A DNA stretch of 64,000 nt from Candidatus Moraniibacteriota bacterium (GTDB lineage Bacteria > Patescibacteriota > Minisyncoccia > Moranbacterales > UBA1568), in the NCBI GenBank assembly GCA_049287005.1, contig JBAQEZ010000003.1, forward strand, positions 181,958 through 245,957, given 5' to 3'. This document shows positions 19,192 to 42,657 of this stretch, piece by piece. Position 1 is the first letter of the stretch, and each line of letters begins with the position of its first letter. Position numbers and translations under genes: made by a program. The notes under the pieces were generated by a model that searched no databases, was not told the DNA's origin, and saw only the letters and a program-made list of their open reading frames with translations.

Positions 19192-19509
19192 TCAATCAAG
19201 GCCGAGTTGGATCTTGGAGTCCTCGGACATTTTGTCGATCGTCCAGGGCGGATCGAAGGTGAGATTGATTTTCACTTCGTTGACCGCGGGAATTTCCATC
19301 ACCTGATCCTCGATTTCTTTCTGTATCTGCGCGAAGAGAGGACAGCCGATGGTCGTCAGGGTCATAGTGATGGTACACACCCCTTCTTTGTTTACGATCA
19401 CTCCATAGATCAGCCCCAAATCCAAAATAGACACGCCCAATTCGGGATCGAGCACGAGCTTGAGCTTTTCTTTCACTTTAGCCTTGAGGGATATTTTTTC
19501 TGCTGACAT
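19192..19509 (-). CDS. sufT: DUF59/MIP18-family Fe-S cluster assembly protein (SufT-like). An alternative upstream start at 19566 would add 19 aa.
   Basis: MSAEKISLKAKVKEKLKLVLDPELGVSILDLGLIYGV ... CTITMTLTTIGCPL, the typical DUF59 pattern (VxDPE ... D/NLGLI ... TxxxCP). Confidence 0.6.
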   Translation of the reverse strand: MSAEKISLKAKVKEKLKLVLDPELGVSILDLGLIYGVIVNKEGVCTITMTLTTIGCPLFAQIQKEIEDQVMEIPAVNEVKINLTFDPPWTIDKMSEDSKIQLGLD

Positions 19510-19674
19510 GACTTTTAGCGTGAAGAAAAGGTACAAAATAGAAATCAATTTGAGAAAAGATTTCAAAATGTTTTTTAGGGAGCCTTTAGCGAAATTGCTT
19601 CGGTACGGCTCATCTAAAAACTTTTGAAATCTTTTCAGTACCTATCTTTATTTTATGGAGCTTAGCTCCAAAGA

Positions 19675-19947
19675 TTATTCCGGGAAAATGACTTTGCCTG
19701 TCTCATCCTTGATGATGATGGCGGCTACCGGACAGGAACGCGCGGCGTTCAAGATGATGTCCTGGCTATCTTGATCGACGGTCGCCAGGATAGAGGCTTT
19801 GCCGCTGTCATCGAGAGCGAATGTCTTGGGCGCCATGGCAGTACAGGGCGCCGCGCCGATACAGGCGCCATGATCGACTTCTACGGTCCAACCATTGTTC
19901 ATTTTTACGGGTCCGGCTGGTCTGGCTTCGTCTTTCCATTGTGACAT
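19675..19947 (-). CDS. Small mono-cluster ferredoxin
   Basis: 90 aa with Cys ligands in HGACIGAAPCTAMAP and ARSCPVAAI (C-x-x-x-x-x-C ... CP pattern). Confidence 0.75.
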   Translation of the reverse strand: MSQWKDEARPAGPVKMNNGWTVEVDHGACIGAAPCTAMAPKTFALDDSGKASILATVDQDSQDIILNAARSCPVAAIIIKDETGKVIFPE

Positions 19948-20065: not shown

Positions 20066-20431
20066 TCAGACTTTGGAAAGGAGAGCTTGGTGCAACGTTT
20101 CCAAGGAGAGGAGTCCGCACTTCAGCCGATTGGGCGAAAGCGTGACACCGAGCAGATCGAGCACATGCTTGGGTTCCAGGGCGAGCGCTTCCCCAAGCGG
20201 CTTCTTTTTGGCGTATTCTGTCAAAAGCGAAGCGGAAGCCTGGGAGATGGCGCAACCGGAACCGGAAAACTTCACATCTTCTATGATATCATTTTTGACG
20301 ATTATGTCTATGCGAAGCGTATCCCCGCACGCCAAGTTGGCGGCATCGGCGCGATGGGTCGCTTTTGCCAAGACTCCGTGGTTGCGGGGATTGCGATAAT
20401 GATCCAGGATGAGATCTTGGTAAAGGGACAT
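20066..20431 (-). CDS. sufU: SUF-system Fe-S scaffold/sulfur acceptor SufU (IscU/NifU-like N-terminal domain)
   Basis: NPRNHGVL ... NLACGDTLRIDI ... FSGSGCAISQASAS ... LKCGLLSLETL, the conserved Cys/Asp ligands of SufU. Confidence 0.8.
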   Translation of the reverse strand: MSLYQDLILDHYRNPRNHGVLAKATHRADAANLACGDTLRIDIIVKNDIIEDVKFSGSGCAISQASASLLTEYAKKKPLGEALALEPKHVLDLLGVTLSPNRLKCGLLSLETLHQALLSKV

Positions 20432-20432
20432 A

Positions 20433-21659
20433 TTACTTGGAAAACAGGGTTTGAATTTCTTTCAGCACAACAATCAATCTTTTGATGTTGTTTTCATTGT
20501 TGTAGAGGGAAAAGCTGATACGGGTTGTGGCATGTAGATGGAGACTCCTGTGGAGAGGGGTGGCACAGTGCTCGCCGGCTCGCACGCAGATGTTCTGTTC
20601 GCCCAAGAGGTGAGCGATATCATGCGGGTGGATGTTTTCGAAAGAGAAAGCGATGATACCGCCGCGCTTCGCCGGATCAAGCGGACCGACGATGCGGATA
20701 GTCTCGCCGAAGGTTTCCTTCAGGCGTTTGAGAGCGTACGCGGTGAGCGCCATTTCGTGGGCGCGGATGTTGTTTGTCCCGATACTTTCTACGTACTCGA
20801 TAGCGGCGCCCAGAGCGATGACCCCCCCGATATTGGGTGTCCCCGCTTCAAAACGATAGGGGCTGTCTTTGTACAGTGTTTCTTTCGCGCAGGCGTCCAG
20901 AACCATGCCGCCGCCGAAATGGATAGGATGAAGCGTTTCCAGGAGCGACTGTTTTCCATAGAGGACGCCGACGCCGGTTGGTCCGAACATCTTGTGAGCG
21001 GAGAAGGCGACAAAATCAGCGCCCCACTCGGAAACAGCCAGGGGCAGATGCGAAACGGCCTGAGCCGCATCGACGACTACGATAATGTGCGGGTGGATGC
21101 TTTTTATGAGTGCGGTTATTTCTTGGACCGGATTGATGGTGCCGAGGACGTTCGAAACAGCGGAGAAAGCGACTACTTGGGTATGCTCATCAATGAAATT
21201 TTTGAGTACGGCGATATCCAGCAGTCCTTCTGGTGTGATGGGGAGCACGCGAAAATCAAGAGAGCGCCTCTTGGCCAATTCTTTCCAGGGAAGGAAATTG
21301 GAATGGTGTTCCATCTCTGTCGTCGCGACATTGTCTCCCGGCTGGAGCCGGTCAGCCAGCAGCTCTGCGACCAGATTGAGCGCGCCGGTCGCGCCGGCGG
21401 TAAAGATGATTTCCTGGGAGCTGGCGGCTCCGATGAAAGAGGCAATTTTCCCCCGTACCGCTTCGAACTTCTCTGTCGCTTTTTCGGCCAAGGGGTAGAG
21501 TCCGCGGGCGATATTGGCGGAATAGCGTTCTAGGTACTCCCGTTCCGCGTCAATGACGATCTGGGGCTTGAGAGCGGTGGCAGCCGAGTCTAAATACACG
21601 AGATCTTTTTCGTGTGTAAAAAGAGGGAAATCGAATTTTGCTTGCTTGATGTCTTTCAT
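20433..21659 (-). CDS. sufS: Cysteine desulfurase SufS (class V aminotransferase fold)
   Basis: YLDSAATALKP ... PLP-Lys region FSAHKMFGPTGVGVLYGK ... active-site Cys RAGEHCATPL. Confidence 0.9.
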   Translation of the reverse strand: MKDIKQAKFDFPLFTHEKDLVYLDSAATALKPQIVIDAEREYLERYSANIARGLYPLAEKATEKFEAVRGKIASFIGAASSQEIIFTAGATGALNLVAELLADRLQPGDNVATTEMEHHSNFLPWKELAKRRSLDFRVLPITPEGLLDIAVLKNFIDEHTQVVAFSAVSNVLGTINPVQEITALIKSIHPHIIVVVDAAQAVSHLPLAVSEWGADFVAFSAHKMFGPTGVGVLYGKQSLLETLHPIHFGGGMVLDACAKETLYKDSPYRFEAGTPNIGGVIALGAAIEYVESIGTNNIRAHEMALTAYALKRLKETFGETIRIVGPLDPAKRGGIIAFSFENIHPHDIAHLLGEQNICVRAGEHCATPLHRSLHLHATTRISFSLYNNENNIKRLIVVLKEIQTLFSK

Positions 21660-22252
21660 AGTGCTTGTAAATATTCTTTCAGTGTAGCGGTTATTGCTTG
21701 CGTGTCTATACCCCGGTCCTCTATTTTTAACAGGGCGTCATTGAAAAAGCCTTGCACCAGAAGCGTTTTGGCTTGTGCCGGCGAAAGGCCGCGTGTCTCA
21801 GCGAAAAAAAGAGCTTCTCTGTTGAGCGGACTGGCGGTGGCCGCATGGCGGCATTTCACGTCATCGGCCAGGATTTCCAGCACGGGGTTCATGGAGGCGA
21901 AGGCATCAGGAGAAAGGAGGAGGGCGCGGCTCTCCTGTGAAGCATCGCTTTGTGGAGCATGCGCGGCAATGAAGATGAGTCCCTCGTACGTGTAGCGCGA
22001 TTCATCCGACACGACGCTTTTGACGAGCGTATGAGAGACGGTTTTTGGGGCGAGATGTTGCTGTCGTATCCGCAAAGAAGACGTGTCGGCGTTCTTTCCG
22101 ATGAAAAAAGAAAAAATGTGCGCTTCCGCGCCGCTCTCGGCGAGCTCAAACACGACGTCTCCCGAGCGATTGAGCATGAAGAAGACAGCCTTTTCGTCTT
22201 GGCCGAGGCGGTAGGTATTTTTATAGTCTTGTGAGATGTCTCTGAATTGCAT
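21656..22252 (-). CDS. sufD: Fe-S cluster assembly protein SufD (short form)
   Basis: C-terminal SufB/D signature LADDVKCRHAATASPL. Overlaps sufS by 4 nt (ATGA). Confidence 0.7.
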   Translation of the reverse strand: MQFRDISQDYKNTYRLGQDEKAVFFMLNRSGDVVFELAESGAEAHIFSFFIGKNADTSSLRIRQQHLAPKTVSHTLVKSVVSDESRYTYEGLIFIAAHAPQSDASQESRALLLSPDAFASMNPVLEILADDVKCRHAATASPLNREALFFAETRGLSPAQAKTLLVQGFFNDALLKIEDRGIDTQAITATLKEYLQAL

Positions 22253-22266
22253 AAGGTAATAATTTG

Positions 22267-23706
22267 TTATCCCACACTTCCTTCCATTTCCATGTTGATC
22301 AATCGGTTCAGTTCTATCGAATATTCGAGCGGAATCTCTTTGACGACCGGATCGATGAAGCCGTTGACGAGCAATCCTTCGGCATCTTCCTTCTTGATAC
22401 CGCGCGAGGTGAGATAGAACAACTGTTCCTCGCCTATTTTCTCCACCGTCGCTTCGTGTTCGAACGTGGCGCTCTTTTCCTTGATCGACATCGTCGGGTA
22501 CGTGTCTGAGCGTGAAGTATCATCGAGGAGAAGAGCGTCGCAGACGACGGAGGCCTTGGCATTTGTGGCACCGCGTCCGATATGCACCAAACCGCGGTAG
22601 GAAGTCCGCCCGCCATCTTTGGAAATGGATTTGGAAACAACGCGGGAAGTGGTATCGGGAGCCAGGTGCACCATCTTCGCGCCGGCATCCTGATGCTGGC
22701 CCGCGCCGGCATAGGCGATGGAGAGGACTTCGCCGTGAGCGCCGCGTCCCGTGAGATAGACCGCCGGGTATTTCATGGTGACGCCGGAGCCGATATTGCA
22801 ATCCACCCATTCCATCACGGCATTTTCTTCCGCTCGCGCGCGTTTGGTGACGAGATTAAAAATATTTTTGCTCCAGTTCTGCACCGTGGTGTAGCGGACG
22901 TGCGCGTTCTTGGCGACGAATATCTCTACCACCGCTGAATGTAGCGAATTGGTCGTATAAATCGGAGCCGTGCAGCCTTCGACATAGTGCACGGAACTGC
23001 CTTCTTCCGCGATGATGAGCGTGCGTTCGAATTGGCCGAAGGCCTCGGCGTTGATGCGGAAATAGGCCTGGAGCGGCAGCTTGACTTTCACGCTTTTCGG
23101 TATGTACACAAAAGAGCCGCCGGACCAGACGGCGGAATTGAGCGCGGCGAATTTGTTATCGTGAGCCGGGATCAGTGTGCCGAAGTATTTCTTGACGATA
23201 TCCGGATATTTTTTGACCGCCGTATCCATATCACAGAAGATAACGCCCAGTCGGTCGAGTTCGCGACTGATGCTCTCGTAGACTACTTCGGATTCATACT
23301 GCGCGGAAACGCCGGCGAGAAATTTTTTTTCCGCTTCCGGCACGCCGATGCGGTCGTAGGTTTCTTTGATCTCCTGCGGCAGGTCATCCCAGCTCGTCGC
23401 CTGCTTGTCGGTCGCTTTGAGATAGTAGGTGATAGCGTTGAAATCAATTTTGGAAAGATCGGCGCCGAAGCTGGGCATCGGTTTGCTCTTGAAAATTTCA
23501 TAGGCGCGCAAACGCAGATTCCGCATCCAGGCAGATTCATTTTTGATCTGGGAAATTTCAGCCACGATTTTTTTATTCAGACCCAGGGTGGTTTTATGCA
23601 CCGAGCGTTCCGGCATGGCGAAACCGAACTTGTAATCTCCGAAGTCGATGTTTTTTTTCTTTGCGTCTCGCATATTATTTGATGTGTTCGAATCCCTTTT
23701 GTTCAA
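22267..23706 (-). CDS. sufB: Fe-S cluster assembly protein SufB. An alternative start at 23673 would remove a 32-nt overlap with sufC.
   Basis: Long SufB-specific conservation, including EGCTAPIYTTNSLHSAVVEIF ... GAKMVHLAPDTTSRVVSKSIS ... VVCDALLLDD. Confidence 0.9.
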   Translation of the reverse strand: MNKRDSNTSNNMRDAKKKNIDFGDYKFGFAMPERSVHKTTLGLNKKIVAEISQIKNESAWMRNLRLRAYEIFKSKPMPSFGADLSKIDFNAITYYLKATDKQATSWDDLPQEIKETYDRIGVPEAEKKFLAGVSAQYESEVVYESISRELDRLGVIFCDMDTAVKKYPDIVKKYFGTLIPAHDNKFAALNSAVWSGGSFVYIPKSVKVKLPLQAYFRINAEAFGQFERTLIIAEEGSSVHYVEGCTAPIYTTNSLHSAVVEIFVAKNAHVRYTTVQNWSKNIFNLVTKRARAEENAVMEWVDCNIGSGVTMKYPAVYLTGRGAHGEVLSIAYAGAGQHQDAGAKMVHLAPDTTSRVVSKSISKDGGRTSYRGLVHIGRGATNAKASVVCDALLLDDTSRSDTYPTMSIKEKSATFEHEATVEKIGEEQLFYLTSRGIKKEDAEGLLVNGFIDPVVKEIPLEYSIELNRLINMEMEGSVG

Positions 23707-24391
23707 TTATTTTGGCGAGAGCGCTGGTTCCCGTGCTGACGAGACGGCCATCTTTGATGATCAGAACTTCCTCTGGCTTGATATATTTGAGCAAGCGCGT
23801 CGAGTGGGTGATGAAAACGAGAGTGGTAGTCTTGGGCAGATGCTCTTTCAGGAAGTGAGCAATAGTGCGGAGCGCGTCGACATCGACGCCGGTATCGATT
23901 TCGTCCAACAGGGCGAATTTCGGAGCCAGGAGAACGGCCTGGAGGGCTTCCAGCTTTTTCTTTTCTCCGCCGGAGAAACCATCATTGAGAGAACGTTTCA
24001 AGAGTTCATCTTTGATGCGGAGTTCTTTGGCATATTCTTTTATTTGTTTATGCAGGGTAACCGGATCCACTTGTTTTTCGAGAGCGAGCCGGAGGAGTTC
24101 GAAGACGGTCACTCCTGGCAGCATCATGGGTGTCTGGAAAGAGAGAAAAATACCCAGTCGGGCCCGTTTATCTGGGGAAAGGTTTTTGATGTTCCTGCTA
24201 TTCGCCAGTATCTTGGATGCGCGAGAATACACAATATTCGGATGTCCCATGATGGCACTCGCCAGGGTGGATTTACCGGAGCCATTCGGGCCCATCAGCG
24301 CATAGGTTCTGCCTGGCTTGAAATCAAACGAGATGTCGTCGAGGATTTTCTTGTTTGCGATGGAAACAGAGAGATTTCTGATGTGCAGCAT
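23675..24391 (-). CDS. sufC: Fe-S cluster assembly ATPase SufC
   Basis: Start MLHIRNLSVSI at the internal Met (track ORF extended to 24490). Walker A GPNGSGKSTL, signature FSGGEKKK, and SufC-type MGHP motif. Confidence 0.9.
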   Translation of the reverse strand: MLHIRNLSVSIANKKILDDISFDFKPGRTYALMGPNGSGKSTLASAIMGHPNIVYSRASKILANSRNIKNLSPDKRARLGIFLSFQTPMMLPGVTVFELLRLALEKQVDPVTLHKQIKEYAKELRIKDELLKRSLNDGFSGGEKKKLEALQAVLLAPKFALLDEIDTGVDVDALRTIAHFLKEHLPKTTTLVFITHSTRLLKYIKPEEVLIIKDGRLVSTGTSALAKIIEQKGFEHIK

Positions 24392-24398
24392 AGGGGTG

Positions 24399-24809
24399 TT
24401 ATCGTGAAATATTTTTTGGAATGAGACTGGCGATAGAAATGTCCGAAAGCGTTTCCTCGATCTTATTTTCCAACGCGCGCCACACTTCATTGGTTTGGCA
24501 GTGGCTCACATGGAGACAGGGCAGGATGCCTGCGACAGAAGCGGTGAATGTTTTGATCGGTCCGTCGAGTGCGCGGAGGATGTTCCAGACACTGATACGG
24601 TCTGTTTCGCGCGCCAAAGCATAGCCACCGGCCGTGCCTTTGGTAGCCTCTACGATACCGGCTCGGCGGAGACTTTGGAGGATTTTTTCCAGATAATCTT
24701 CTGGCAAGCCCTCCGCGGCGGCGAGAGCATGAATAGAAAGCGTCGTATCGGTTTGGGCGAGAGCTACTATGGCTCTGAGCCCATAATATGCTTTCTTTGA
24801 TACCTTCAT
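24399..24809 (-). CDS. Rrf2-family transcriptional regulator (IscR/SufR-like)
   Basis: N-terminal wHTH AYYGLRAIVALAQ ... LSIHALAAAEGLPEDYLEKILQSLRRAGIV, plus a C-terminal Cys pair (CLHVSHC). First gene of the suf operon. Confidence 0.8.
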   Translation of the reverse strand: MKVSKKAYYGLRAIVALAQTDTTLSIHALAAAEGLPEDYLEKILQSLRRAGIVEATKGTAGGYALARETDRISVWNILRALDGPIKTFTASVAGILPCLHVSHCQTNEVWRALENKIEETLSDISIASLIPKNISR

Positions 24810-24824
24810 GATATTTTCATAATT

Positions 24825-24841
24825 CAGACTAATTTAGTCTG
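24825..24841. promoter_or_regulatory. 17-bp perfect palindrome CAGACTAATTTAGTCTG, 16 nt upstream of the rrf2 start; candidate Rrf2/IscR-type operator
   Basis: Its core GACT-AATTT-AGTC matches the IscR type-1 consensus half-sites (GACTR-www-YAGTC). Confidence 0.5.
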
Positions 24842-24937
24842 ATATTAATAGAAAAGGCAGATTTTGTCAACCTTACTGTGGACAAGGAGACTGCTTCCTG
24901 CTACAACTCCGAGAGTAGTTTAACAGTGAGGTGAGAC

Positions 24938-25333
24938 ATGAATGCTTCCTATGAAGGCGTATGGTACAGTCCGGGACAGCTGTTTTGTGAGCTCGGCGTG
25001 GAGCGGCTGTATGTGTACCGTCCGCGCCGCCCTTTGGACAGGAGCGTCGTTCTCGATATCATCGAACTCGATGAGAATATCCGCAATTATGGTCTGGCGT
25101 TTCTTTTCCTCCCTATGGAAAATGGCGCGCTGGAGCCGATTGTGTTTTGCGAGAATGATACGGAGCAGTCCGTCTGTCTCTTTCTTACGTTCGATTATAC
25201 GGAAGGAAAATTCTTTTTCGGCTTGCGTGCGAAAGGGGGGAACGAGGTCGTCTCTCGCACCCTTCTTGAGATGCGGTTCAAGTGCCGAGCGCTGTCGTTT
25301 GAGAGGGACACTTTCTTCCTTTTTCCTTCGTGA
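24938..25333 (+). CDS. Hypothetical protein (131 aa)
   Basis: AGGTGAG ribosome-binding site 5 nt upstream of ATG 24938. The composition is more protein-like than the overlapping antisense ORF (24920-25351), which is R/K-rich. Confidence 0.3.
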   Translation: MNASYEGVWYSPGQLFCELGVERLYVYRPRRPLDRSVVLDIIELDENIRNYGLAFLFLPMENGALEPIVFCENDTEQSVCLFLTFDYTEGKFFFGLRAKGGNEVVSRTLLEMRFKCRALSFERDTFFLFPS

Positions 25334-25433
25334 CTCCTTGAGAATCTTCAAGCCGTCGCGAGGGATTTTTGTTTTTTATGACCAACGGGGCATGGTTTCT
25401 TTTTTTTGAAAAATACAGTACACTGGTGCAACT

Positions 25434-26684
25434 ATGATCAAACCAGGTGATGTGGAAATTATGGCGCCAGCTGGAAGTTTTGAGAGCTTGGCGGCGGCCA
25501 TCAAGGGCGGATGCGACAGCGTCTATTTCGGCGTGACCCAGCTCAATATGCGTGCCCGGGCGGCGGCCAATCTGACGCTGTCCGACCTGGCAGAGGTGGC
25601 GCGGATCTGTCATGCAAAAAACGTCAAAGCCTATTTGGCGGTCAACACGCTCCTGTATGATCATGACACGCAGATCATGCGCAAGCTCGTGGACGCTGCC
25701 AAAGAAAATACTATCGATGCCGTCATCGCGTTTGATTTCGCGACAATACAGTATTGTAACGAGATCGGCATGCCAGTGCATATATCGGTACAGTTTTCTG
25801 TTTCCAATTATGAGTCGCTGAAGTTCTTCGCGACGATGACGAATCGCGTAGTGCTAGCACGCGAACTGACGCTCGATCAGATGCGCGTGATACATGAGCG
25901 TATTGAAAAAGAACAACTCATGGGGCGAGAAGGGCGGCTGATGGAAATAGAGGCGTTTGTGCACGGAGCGCTCTGCGTGGCGCAATCGGGACGCTGTTTC
26001 ATGAGCACGTATACGGATAATGCTTCCGCCAATCGCGGAGCCTGCTTGCAGAATTGTCGCGGGCAGTACAAGGTGACTGATATGGAAACTGGCAAAGAAC
26101 TCGTGCTGGACAATCATTATGTGATGAGCGCGGCGGATATCTGTACGATTGATTTTTTAGATGAACTCTTGAAAGCTGGCGTGCAGACATGGAAAATCGA
26201 GGGACGCGGACGTTCTCCGGAATATGTCTATACGGTAGTCAAGACATACCGGCAAGCACTCTGTGATTTGGCAGCGGGTGAATATACGAAAGCAAAGGTG
26301 GTAAAATATTTCGAAGATTTGAAGACGGTCTATCATCGCGGATTGTCGCATGGGAACTATTATCTGGGTCGCGAATTGGACGCTTACGGTGATGCATACG
26401 GATCGAAATCCACCAAAGAGAAGGTTTTTGTCGGTACGGTGAAAAAATATTTTGCCAAAGCGGGCGTGGCTGAGGCAATGATTGATGCCGGTACTCTGGC
26501 TCAGGGTGATGAGATCCGCATCCTGGGTGCCACAACGGGAGTGTACGAAGGAGGTGTCAGCGAGCTCCGGGCGGCCGACATGACACCCCGAACAAGCGGA
26601 AAAAAGGGGGATATCGTGACCTTTCCGGTGACGGAACGAGTGCGCGTGAATGACAAAGTATATTTGTGGAAAGATAAGAAATAA
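25434..26684 (+). CDS. Peptidase family U32 (collagenase-like protease or RNA/quinone-modification enzyme family)
   Basis: N-terminal signature MIKPGDVEIMAPAGSFESLAAAIKGGCDSVYFG and the central conserved region CVAQSGRCFMSTY. Confidence 0.85.
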   Translation: MIKPGDVEIMAPAGSFESLAAAIKGGCDSVYFGVTQLNMRARAAANLTLSDLAEVARICHAKNVKAYLAVNTLLYDHDTQIMRKLVDAAKENTIDAVIAFDFATIQYCNEIGMPVHISVQFSVSNYESLKFFATMTNRVVLARELTLDQMRVIHERIEKEQLMGREGRLMEIEAFVHGALCVAQSGRCFMSTYTDNASANRGACLQNCRGQYKVTDMETGKELVLDNHYVMSAADICTIDFLDELLKAGVQTWKIEGRGRSPEYVYTVVKTYRQALCDLAAGEYTKAKVVKYFEDLKTVYHRGLSHGNYYLGRELDAYGDAYGSKSTKEKVFVGTVKKYFAKAGVAEAMIDAGTLAQGDEIRILGATTGVYEGGVSELRAADMTPRTSGKKGDIVTFPVTERVRVNDKVYLWKDKK

Positions 26685-40479: not shown

Positions 40480-42657
40480 TCAGGCATGAGAATCGTCTGA
40501 GTCGGCGGCGTACGAGGCGGGGCTGTCAGAATGTGAATATATATACGTATCACGCAGGCCTAAATCCTTTGTGAGGAGGAGTGCCGCTTCGATCAACTGG
40601 TCGGATAGCGCGGCGTTTTCCGTTATGCCGGTCGATGTGGACGCTCGCGGGTATTTCAGGAGCAGCGTCTGTCCGTATGGGTGACGCTCTTCCGGGCAGT
40701 CATCTGGGACGATACCCACGAATTCCGCTCCCCTCAGGACGACTGATTGCGGCGCACAATGAAAATTCGCAAGACAGAGGGCAAAACATACGATAGTATT
40801 GCCATGTTGATTCCCGCTGTCAGACGTCAGCAACCGTGAAGCGGGTGTACAGAGGAGTCGGTCACTACCGAGATCTGTACGAAGAAGCGTAATCTGTCCG
40901 GCGATATTCCCATTCCTCTCTGTAGCGATAAGCACGAAATGTTTGGCAATATTTTTTTCATACTGCTTTTCATCCACCGTCAGCGGCTGCCAGCATTGAT
41001 GGTAAAGCTGATAGGAGGCGTGTATTCTGGGCGAGTGCGGAACAAGAAGAGAAAACGTGAGGTGATCCGTTTTCAAAAGTTCCTGTATCAGTTCGAACTG
41101 ATTCGGCGGCAGCTGTTTCTTGAGAACAGTGCGCTGCACTTTCCCCGTCGAAGTCATAGGGAGTTTTTCTGATGCGATGGAGGTGATATATCGTGGGGTC
41201 TCATAGGTGCTGATGTGCGGCGATTCCGAGAGCAACAGGAGTTTCAGATGTCTCGTCTTGTTCTCAATATCGACGCCGGGCTTCCAACAAATGGCAGCCG
41301 CGACCTCCTCTCCATAGCGATCATCCGTTACGCTGATGACGTAGGCCTGATCGATATCGGCCGATATTTTCTTGAGACTATTTTCTACGGCGGAGGGAGA
41401 AATATTGACACCGCCTTTGATGATGATTTCTTTTTTTCTCCCTTTGAGGAAAAAGAAACGCCGCCCTTCGAGAATTTTGAACAATCCGATGTCTCCCGTC
41501 AAAAAATATCCGTCCCGAAAAGCTGGCTCTCCGCCCACGTATCCATCCATGACAGCCGCTCCTGCAACGATAAGCTCGCCCTCTTCGTTTTCGTTGAGGA
41601 TTACACCGGCGTCATCCGCAATTTGCAGATCCGCCCAGGGCATCGGAATACCGATAGAATTCGCTTCAATCATCTCTTGATACAGGTTCGCAGAGAGATC
41701 CATCGGTACGCCCGTCACACGGAGGGACGTTTCGGTTTGACCATAGCCTTGATAGAGCGGGATGTGGTATTTATTGTGGAATTCAAAAACGCTTTGCGCA
41801 ATGACGGGAGCAGAACCGATCTGGATCCGATTCAAGAGCAGCTCTTTTTTTACGGACGCGTATTCGGACTCGCGGCTGAGTTGGTCGTGCACGATGGACT
41901 GAACGATGGACGTGAACGTCGTACGGGTTGCGGCGGCCTGATGCCAGAAGTTCGAATTCGAATACGCCGGGGGGATGGCGATGGAGCCGCCAGACAGCAG
42001 TGTCGCGAGACAGAACGTTGTTGAATTGATATGGTGGAGCGGCAAATTGACGAGAAAACGATCTCGTTCCTCTATCCGCAGCCAGTGGCGGATGCCGTTC
42101 GCGTTCACTACGAGATTCTGTAGTGAGAGTTTCGCGCCCTTAGGATAGCCGGTGGTTCCGGAGGTAAATAAAATAAGCGCGAGGTGCGACAGGTCGTCTG
42201 CCCATGGCGTGTTCCCGATCGCTGTGCGCGGCAATGCGGAAAATATCTCGATCTTGATTCCCGAAAAACCGTCACGATCGATAGTTTCAGATATTTTGTC
42301 TTGGATGATGAGCAGCTTGGCGTGGTTCAGCGCGATTTTGTACCGATAGAGCTCGCTGGTATCATGCTTGACGTCGAGGGGAACGGTAACGATACCTATG
42401 CTCCATGCCGCCCAACTGAGTATCAGGAGTTCTGTTGAGTTGCTGAACGCCAGCGCAATGCGGCTGTCTTTTCGGAGCCCTAACCCCAAGAGGTAGGCGG
42501 CGGCATCTTCTATCTTTTCTGCCAGCCGACCATAAGAAATCTCCTCAGTGATGAGCCCATCTTGCGCGCAAGAGAGGAGAGCGATCTTTTCGGGATTATT
42601 TTTCGCCGCAGAAGCGAAGAAAGAGTGAAGATTTTCAGCGGGAGAGGTCGCTTTCAT
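40480..42657 (-). CDS. AMP-dependent synthetase/ligase (fatty acyl-AMP ligase or acyl-CoA synthetase-like adenylation enzyme) fused to a C-terminal domain of about 195 aa of unknown function
   Basis: ANL-superfamily core motifs: LFTSGTTGYPKGA (A3), YGQTE (A5), LTGDIG (A7), GRKKEIIIKGGVNISP (A8), PMTSTGKVQR (A10 Lys). The C-terminal region (GNTIVCFALCL ... VLRGAEFVGI) has no motif I can assign. Confidence 0.8.
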   Translation of the reverse strand: MKATSPAENLHSFFASAAKNNPEKIALLSCAQDGLITEEISYGRLAEKIEDAAAYLLGLGLRKDSRIALAFSNSTELLILSWAAWSIGIVTVPLDVKHDTSELYRYKIALNHAKLLIIQDKISETIDRDGFSGIKIEIFSALPRTAIGNTPWADDLSHLALILFTSGTTGYPKGAKLSLQNLVVNANGIRHWLRIEERDRFLVNLPLHHINSTTFCLATLLSGGSIAIPPAYSNSNFWHQAAATRTTFTSIVQSIVHDQLSRESEYASVKKELLLNRIQIGSAPVIAQSVFEFHNKYHIPLYQGYGQTETSLRVTGVPMDLSANLYQEMIEANSIGIPMPWADLQIADDAGVILNENEEGELIVAGAAVMDGYVGGEPAFRDGYFLTGDIGLFKILEGRRFFFLKGRKKEIIIKGGVNISPSAVENSLKKISADIDQAYVISVTDDRYGEEVAAAICWKPGVDIENKTRHLKLLLLSESPHISTYETPRYITSIASEKLPMTSTGKVQRTVLKKQLPPNQFELIQELLKTDHLTFSLLVPHSPRIHASYQLYHQCWQPLTVDEKQYEKNIAKHFVLIATERNGNIAGQITLLRTDLGSDRLLCTPASRLLTSDSGNQHGNTIVCFALCLANFHCAPQSVVLRGAEFVGIVPDDCPEERHPYGQTLLLKYPRASTSTGITENAALSDQLIEAALLLTKDLGLRDTYIYSHSDSPASYAADSDDSHA

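Follow-up and report, generated by a model that had tools for sequence, protein, structure and literature searches.

A conserved 25-bp dyad at the rrf2-suf promoter of Moranbacteria is very probably the operator of an IscR-like Rrf2 repressor

Introduction

The described systems closest to the locus analysed here are Rrf2-family regulators of Fe-S cluster biogenesis, and on several occasions Fe-S loci have recruited Rrf2 genes (PMC9973013). In E. coli, the type-1 consensus of IscR is ATASYYGACTRWWWYAGTCRRSTAT, and [2Fe-2S]-IscR bound at such sites represses isc (PMC3899308). In M. xanthus, RisR, which falls into the phylogenetic group IS6 and whose gene comes first in risR-sufBCDSUT, leaves a footprint of TkGAC-N7-GTCCw with AT-rich flanks, and it is the holo form of this protein that represses (PMC9973013). 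The ligands that hold the cluster may be non-canonical; R. sphaeroides IscR binds an Fe-S cluster with a single Cys (PMC4618611), and in NsrR the cluster ligand Asp8 is supplied by the partner subunit (PMC5411485).

The window, i.e., the whole 64-kb stretch of Candidatus Moraniibacteriota DNA analysed here, contains a suf operon that is headed by an Rrf2 gene, and an earlier note on this DNA had drawn attention to a palindrome directly upstream of that gene. To our knowledge, there is almost no experimental knowledge of transcription control in CPR/Patescibacteria, and a literature search for Rrf2 in Patescibacteria found no earlier work. The analysis reported here indicates that the palindrome is very probably the conserved site by which an IscR-like Rrf2 repressor shuts off its own suf operon.

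Results

The operon lies on the minus strand, which the earlier note had left unsaid, and, by matches to Pfam and NCBIfam, reads rrf2-sufC-sufB-sufD(short)-sufS-sufU; all six genes that had been assigned to a suf operon headed by an Rrf2 regulator were confirmed by these matches. The regulator gene (24399..24809, minus strand; ATG 24809-24807, stop 24401-24399) encodes a 136-aa protein with a Pfam Rrf2 match at E=1.4e-32. It is followed by sufC (23675..24391, minus strand; TIGR01978, 249.5 bits, above the cutoff), which starts with the ATG at 24391, 7 nt past the rrf2 stop codon by our measurement rather than the 8 nt given in the earlier note, and by sufB (22267..23706, minus strand; TIGR01980, 702.8 bits), for which an ATG at 23673 is a more likely start than the listed TTG at 23706. 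The short sufD-like gene (21656..22252, minus strand; 198 aa) encodes a product limited to the C-terminal half of the SufBD core (positions 96-232 of the Pfam SUFBD_core profile) and scores 150 bits against TIGR01981, below the cutoff of 222; a short sufD-like gene is found at the same place in most of the orthologous loci that reach that far. The last two of the six genes are the cysteine desulfurase gene sufS (20433..21659, minus strand; TIGR01979, 498.3 bits) and sufU (20066..20431, minus strand; TIGR01994, 100.8 bits, above the cutoff).

Past sufU, at a distance of 118 nt, lies a 90-aa ferredoxin-like ORF (19675..19947, minus strand) with a C-x2-x-x-C...CP motif that was recognized by eye, and beyond it a sufT-like (DUF59) gene (19192..19566, minus strand; Pfam FeS_assembly_P; TIGR02945, 101.9 bits, below the cutoff), whose true start is likely the ATG at 19509. 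An operator, a promoter and a minus-strand terminator were looked for in the gap between sufU and the ferredoxin-like ORF and none was found, and a search for a second promoter or terminator between sufU, this ORF and the sufT-like gene gave nothing convincing; the ferredoxin-like ORF may be co-transcribed with the suf operon. On the other side of the regulator gene, a divergent 131-aa ORF (24938-25333, plus strand) has neither a Pfam nor an NCBIfam match. Its weak homologues (28-41% identity) occur upstream of rrf2 in three loci only (L019, L033 and L040), and it is therefore not a conserved partner of the operator.

The sequence CAGACTAATTTAGTCTG at 24825-24841 is, as the earlier note had claimed, a perfect 17-bp palindrome; a direct read of its arms (CAGACTAA and TTAGTCTG) and its centre found the arms fully complementary around a central T. 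Fifteen nucleotides lie between the palindrome and the rrf2 ATG, so that the palindrome ends at -16. Perfect palindromes of the 8-1-8 type number four in the 64-kb window against a shuffle mean of 1.0, and at least one is present in 65% of shuffles; as such a palindrome is thus within chance in 64 kb, we rejected palindromicity as evidence of function and looked for significance in position, motif identity and conservation instead. Perfect palindromes with arms of 8 nt also lie at 186, 23962 (within sufC) and 32909 (8-1-8) and at 41087 and 57749 (8-0-8) of the window, and none of them matches the operator weight matrix described below. The core GACTAATTTAGTC is the sole zero-mismatch match to GACTRWWWYAGTC in the window; when up to two mismatches are allowed, this degenerate core has 17 matches against 9.3 expected, and all but the real site have two mismatches.

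With regard to position, the palindrome starts at the base that directly follows a sigma-70-type promoter, TTGACA-17 nt-TAATAT, on the minus strand (24870->24842). The -35 hexamer TTGACA (24865..24870, minus strand) was found by a consensus scan, and TTGACA stands at the equivalent place in 61 of 70 orthologues; the -10 hexamer TAATAT (24842..24847, minus strand) follows after a 17-nt spacer. Because the palindrome comes immediately after the -10 box, it covers the predicted transcription start, which would lie about 7 nt past that box, near 24835 and within the palindrome. A site that abuts the -10 box is what autorepression would predict, and the suggestion that the palindrome is a candidate operator for autoregulation therefore gained support. 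Downstream of the palindrome, an upstream out-of-frame ATG opens a 4-codon mini-ORF (MKIS*, ATGAAAATATCATGA; 24806..24820, minus strand, read from the sequence) that arose by an 11-nt tandem duplication of the 5' end of the Rrf2 gene (ATGAAAATATC / ATGAAGGTATC) and whose TGA overlaps the real rrf2 ATG. This upstream ATG, 4 nt past the palindrome, is at the place of the start codon in 17 orthologues; in the common orthologous arrangement, the entire 5' leader (~18 nt) would be operator sequence. No Shine-Dalgarno sequence was recognisable before rrf2 (24810-24824) or before sufC (24392-24398).

Conservation was assessed in an orthologue set of 74 loci, obtained by scanning one genome per species, in which Rrf2 identity runs from 81% down to 50%; 73 of these loci have upstream sequence, and the 74 sites counted here are those 73 plus the window. 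A Candidatus Moraniibacteriota MAG encodes a protein 100% identical to the window's regulator, and relatives with 65-82% identity are numerous in the same CPR lineage. The gene order rrf2-sufC-sufB-sufD is found in all 74 loci, and the upstream neighbour is variable. In every one of the 73 loci with upstream DNA, GAC-N7-GTC stands directly past a TTGACA-N17-TAnnnT promoter; by chance, GAC-N7-GTC occurs in 2.8% of shuffled 200-nt upstream regions. The earlier note had regarded a lack of conservation in orthologous regions as fatal to its proposal, and the palindrome is instead kept in 73/73 loci, down to an Rrf2 identity of 50% and between unconserved flanks. Invariant in 74/74 sites are GAC/GTC at ±4 to ±6 as well as A at -12 and T at +12, and the invariant core columns carry 1.83 bits, compared to 0.1-0.4 bits per column in the -35/-10 spacer. 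As columns are invariant out to ±12, the functional unit is a 25-bp dyad (24821..24845, no strand; minus-strand reading ATAT-CAGAC-TAAATTA-GTCTG-AATT), which has the 17-bp palindrome (24825..24841, no strand) as its core and, as one outer flank, the final 4 bp of the -10 hexamer. The family consensus of this dyad over the aligned Moranbacteria sites is AWAT-CAGAC-TAAWTTA-GTCYG-AWTT.

A 25-column weight matrix was trained on the 73 orthologous sites, with the window left out. The window operator scores 37.0 bits on this matrix (range of the training sites, 19.3-40.1) and is the only match of at least 8 bits in 64 kb; the maximum over 20 shuffled windows was 10.5 bits. The earlier note had suggested that further copies might lie before korA, the ferredoxin or the sufT-like gene, but the matrix scan at 8 bits found no second site in the 64-kb window and these three genes are thus without an operator; likewise, each 5-kb orthologous locus with upstream sequence has exactly one site. 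The notion that the palindrome is a functionless product of chance could draw on the four perfect 8-1-8 palindromes of the window and on their presence in 65% of shuffles, and yet conservation in 73/73 loci, a fixed position at the promoter and the lack of conservation in the rest of the intergenic sequence leave it a negligible probability; we regard it as already refuted by the comparative data.

The distance between the operator and the -10 box is 0-7 nt in 70 loci, whereas the distance between the operator and the ATG ranges from 4 to 144 nt, which indicates that the place of the operator is tied to the promoter and not to the translation start. Separately, inserts of 9-144 nt between operator and ATG were observed in 38 of the 74 sites (within L001-L068); they are heterogeneous and repeat-like (e.g., in L002, L003, L005, L013, L009, L010 and L014-L017), and several contain GC-rich hairpins or repeat units like CTGAGCnTGTCGAAG. 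In L002, L003, L005 and L013, a remnant of the first ~15 nt of the gene is kept upstream of the insert. These features suggest that small mobile or REP-like elements have inserted repeatedly between operator and ATG. In one further locus, L072 (2501-2883), the Rrf2 frame leaves the family after about residue 33 and the operator is intact; a frameshift, a pseudogene or an assembly error are possible reasons for this divergence.

A palindrome this close to a gene could also act as an RNA hairpin of the 5' leader that affects mRNA stability or translation, rather than as a DNA operator. The palindrome, if fully transcribed, folds at -7.4 kcal/mol (z = -3.8), and in the common arrangement it lies just 4-7 nt before the start codon, as such a hairpin might. 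However, the predicted transcription start is inside the palindrome, and the leader from there on has no structure (-0.9 kcal/mol, z = 0.4). Variation among the 74 sites is not compensatory either: the commonest pair at ±7 is an A/C mismatch (34/74 sites), positions ±2 and ±3 are complementary in only 33-37 of 74 sites, and the invariant ±12 positions are outside any stem. In addition, it is the distance to the -10 box that is kept and not the distance to the ATG, and an Rfam scan of 24300-25500 found no RNA family. We rejected the hairpin model on the grounds of non-compensatory variation and promoter geometry and consider it highly improbable; the unstructured leader, the non-compensatory halves, the constant distance to the -10 box and the empty Rfam scan together point to transcriptional control at the DNA level.

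The identity of the dyad as a binding site of the Rrf2/IscR type emerged from comparisons with published sites. The earlier note had remarked that the core resembles the half-sites of the IscR type-1 motif, and against the published consensus ATASYYGACTRWWWYAGTCRRSTAT the core agrees at 13/13 positions and the 25-mer at 19/25, with the same 25-bp register and with the A and T at ±12 invariant; 19/25 is equal to or better than the agreement of accepted P. aeruginosa sites (68%, 76%). When the Moranbacteria matrix was run on the 3-kb E. coli locus, two 25-mers of the iscR promoter ranked first and second in the same register, with low scores (2.1 and -2.1 bits); we take these two to be the known type-1 sites of that promoter. 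The dyad also has the features of a RisR-type site, i.e., GAC-N7-GTC, invariant in 74/74 sites, with AT-rich flanks at a suf promoter.

Outside Moranbacteria, the 18-mer TCAGACWAAWTTAGTCYG was found in at least 120 metagenome contigs. Among the matches listed, 24 of 120 contigs have an Rrf2 gene whose start is 13-115 nt away from the centre of the site; 22 of these 24 Rrf2 proteins have 26-39% identity to that of the window, 21 of the 22 distant proteins carry the canonical three-cysteine Fe-S motif, and most of the 22 genes are followed by iscS/nifS-iscU-like genes. Among the same listed matches, about ten more sites are directly upstream of a cysteine desulfurase gene or sufB, and a Pfam census of 132 flanking ORFs had Rrf2 (24) and Aminotran_5 (9) on top. 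The recurrence of Rrf2, desulfurase and sufB neighbours across metagenomes thus marks the operator as a widespread IscR-type box. A separate group of contigs (L084, L115, L145, L151, L154, L162 and L168; 63-68% GC) has the box 15-104 nt upstream of a sigma-factor gene. These genes look like alphaproteobacterial RpoH by eye (N-terminus ...LPMVVSESNLARYLQEIRTFPMLEPD...), and Sigma70_r2 was found in seven flanking ORFs; an RpoH-like gene may be a conserved member of the regulon in a different phylum.

The operator also co-varies with the adjacent regulator. Residues 39 and 41 are in the recognition helix, with E41 as the equivalent of E. coli IscR E43, and position ±8 is C in 100 of the 110 half-sites that go with Y39 and E41 but in 4 of the 38 that go with F39 or Q/H41 (Fisher p about 4e-20, a value not corrected for kinship among loci). 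This co-variation bears on whether a transcription factor other than the adjacent Rrf2 protein binds the site, a possibility that is raised by metagenome boxes preceding genes that have no Rrf2 gene next to them. Such a factor would have to account for a box that stands with an Rrf2 gene in all Moranbacteria loci (74/74) and, in other phyla, with distant Rrf2 genes, that matches footprinted Rrf2 sites, and that varies in step with residues of the Rrf2 recognition helix; we hence regard binding by a different factor as very unlikely and retain the adjacent Rrf2 protein as the probable ligand of the dyad.

The regulator belongs to the Rrf2 family by score (PF02082, 113 bits, cutoff 30; TIGR00738, 118 bits, cutoff 73.3). 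It is below the cutoffs for IscR sensu stricto (TIGR02010, 80.4 bits vs 207.55; NF008110, 56.8 vs 275), for the Xanthomonas-type SUF regulator (TIGR02944, 77.9 bits vs 110.65) and for CymR (NF047409, 80 bits vs 195), and its context is suf and not cysteine metabolism. Among solved structures, that of the T. potens regulator (4CIC) comes closest to it, at 96 bits. As in IscR, its gene is the first of an Fe-S biogenesis operon (rrf2-sufCBDSU in the window, rrf2-sufC-sufB-sufD in 74/74 loci), and in sequence terms the protein appears closest to IscR, although its putative cluster loop has just C98, H103 and C104. From the (Cys)3(His)1 set of IscR (Cys92, Cys98, Cys104 and His107), only C98 and C104 align; a residue other than Cys stands at position 92, and an invariant Asn at position 107. 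The three conserved cysteines of the RisR type (C92, C102 and C108) are matched by two in the window protein. Since Cys92 and His107 are absent and the IscR score is 80 vs 207 bits, cluster binding is not assured.

Loop classes were counted over the 73 Moranbacteria loci and the window. Four deep-branching proteins have C-x8-C-x5-C without H103, 63 (including that of the window) have C98-x4-H103-C104, and five, which form one subclade, have Y98-x4-H103-C104 and hence one cysteine in the loop; the remaining two are L072, with two cysteines and no H103, and L074, which is incomplete. The first Cys of the ancestral C-x8-C-x5-C has thus been lost in 69 of 73 complete proteins (72 loci and the window), and H103 is invariant among the regulators with a reduced loop, L072 excepted. 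In the wider family, 137 of 150 representatives have three cysteines, and the reduced pattern is seen in the five closest only. The loop change concerns Rrf2 residues 90-107 and can be followed in loci L063-L065, L067-L071 and L073. The operator is unchanged across all loop classes.

As the loss of the cysteine coincides with the gain of the histidine, H103 would appear, from the aligned proteins, to be a ligand replacement for the lost cysteine. We tentatively propose, as a possible rather than an expected outcome, that Moranbacteria have rebuilt the sensor, with the first cluster Cys lost, H103 gained beside C104 and, in one subclade, C98 changed to Tyr, and have left the operator classical; if a cluster is still held, its coordination would be (Cys)2(His)1+X, with (Cys)1(His)1+X for the subclade, and neither is known to have been described in the Rrf2 family. 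A competing explanation keeps the same operator and autorepression and holds that Fe-S occupancy is no longer sensed, the regulator responding to thiol oxidation, a metal ion or a partner protein, or serving as a constitutive brake. The loss of the first Cys in 69/73 complete proteins, with the further change of C98 to Tyr in five loci, fits this explanation, as does the retention of three cysteines by 137/150 wider relatives; the regulator, left with two cysteines or one, is as similar to CymR as to IscR (80 bits each), and CymR is a precedent for a cluster-free Rrf2 protein. By contrast, the presence of H103 where the first Cys is lost and the invariance of C104 suggest replacement and not decay, R. 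sphaeroides IscR (one Cys) and NsrR (Asp of the partner subunit) are precedents for non-canonical ligation, and the genomic context is purely Fe-S biogenesis. On balance, we consider a cluster-free regulator unlikely, albeit far less so than the alternatives that concern the site itself, and Fe-S sensing by the regulator is what we infer.

Discussion

We consider it likely that the adjacent Rrf2 repressor acts on a 25-bp operator with the palindrome at its core and in this way negatively autoregulates rrf2-sufCBDSU, with Fe-S occupancy as the likely signal. A winged-helix Rrf2 homodimer would bind the dyad, with one CRGAC half-site read by each recognition helix and with the wings touching the AT-rich DNA on either side as far as ±12. 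From the final 4 bp of the -10 hexamer, the operator would extend over the predicted start (roughly -10 to +15), and since it covers the end of the -10 box and that start, a bound repressor would block RNA polymerase; the control would be repression and not activation. Negative autoregulation would thus apply to rrf2-sufCBDSU and possibly also to the downstream ferredoxin-like and sufT-like genes. The signal would most likely be Fe-S cluster occupancy on the C98/H103/C104 loop: the protein would bind with its cluster loaded, and a shortage of clusters, or damage to them, would empty the site and let the SUF machinery be made.

An autoregulated Fe-S operon of the IscR/RisR type in a CPR bacterium extends a known type of circuit rather than representing a new one, and the unusual part is the altered ligand loop of the regulator, not the palindrome. 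For an essential Moranbacteria pathway, the locus provides a well-supported triplet of regulator, operator (a 25-bp motif) and promoter (clearly of the sigma-70 type), which can be tested directly in vitro or after transfer to a heterologous host. In addition, distant phyla have the IscR-type box in common while the regulator's sensor loop has diverged; if the proposed rebuilding of the sensor is true, this CPR lineage, whose genome is minimal, has a rebuilt Rrf2 cluster coordination.

Among the known systems, CymR of Bacillus and Staphylococcus is a cysteine-poor Rrf2 protein that, like IscR, scores 80 bits to the window protein, but it is a regulator of cysteine metabolism without a cluster, and here the genomic context is a different one and the score stays below the CymR cutoff of NCBIfam. 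R. sphaeroides IscR is alike in being an IscR-like repressor that heads an isc-suf operon and in being cysteine-poor with non-canonical ligands, with a cluster still bound; it differs in its target, a 19-bp Iron-Rhodo-box, in its large iron regulon and in the place of its lone cysteine, which is elsewhere in the protein (C142). The T. potens IscR (4CIC) is the nearest solved relative by sequence at 96 bits, and its gene reportedly precedes a sufCBDSU operon in an organism said to be SUF-only (Santos et al. 2014). It has three cysteines, compared to two in the window protein, and their spacing is presumably C-x8-C-x5-C, as in the deepest Moranbacteria orthologues.

M. xanthus RisR shares with the window an Rrf2 gene at the head of a suf operon and a GAC-N7-GTC palindrome in AT-rich DNA; unlike the window's regulator, RisR has three cysteines (C92, C102 and C108), its cluster is probably [4Fe-4S], a separate isc operon is under its control too, and its gene order is sufBCD rather than sufCBD. 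The differences from E. coli IscR are several: two or three sites there and one here, a site over the -35 region there and over -10/+1 here, an isc operon there and a suf operon here, and an outer half-site of YYGAC there and CRGAC here; moreover, the window's regulator is without Cys92 and His107 and scores 80 bits against an equivalog cutoff of 207, and type-2 sites and an activation role are not evident here. Both systems nevertheless have the Rrf2 gene first in an Fe-S biogenesis operon, sites that overlap the promoter in an arrangement for autorepression, and a 25-bp dyad built around a core of GACTR-WWW-YAGTC; the equivalents of C98, C104 and E43 (here E41) are kept in the window protein.
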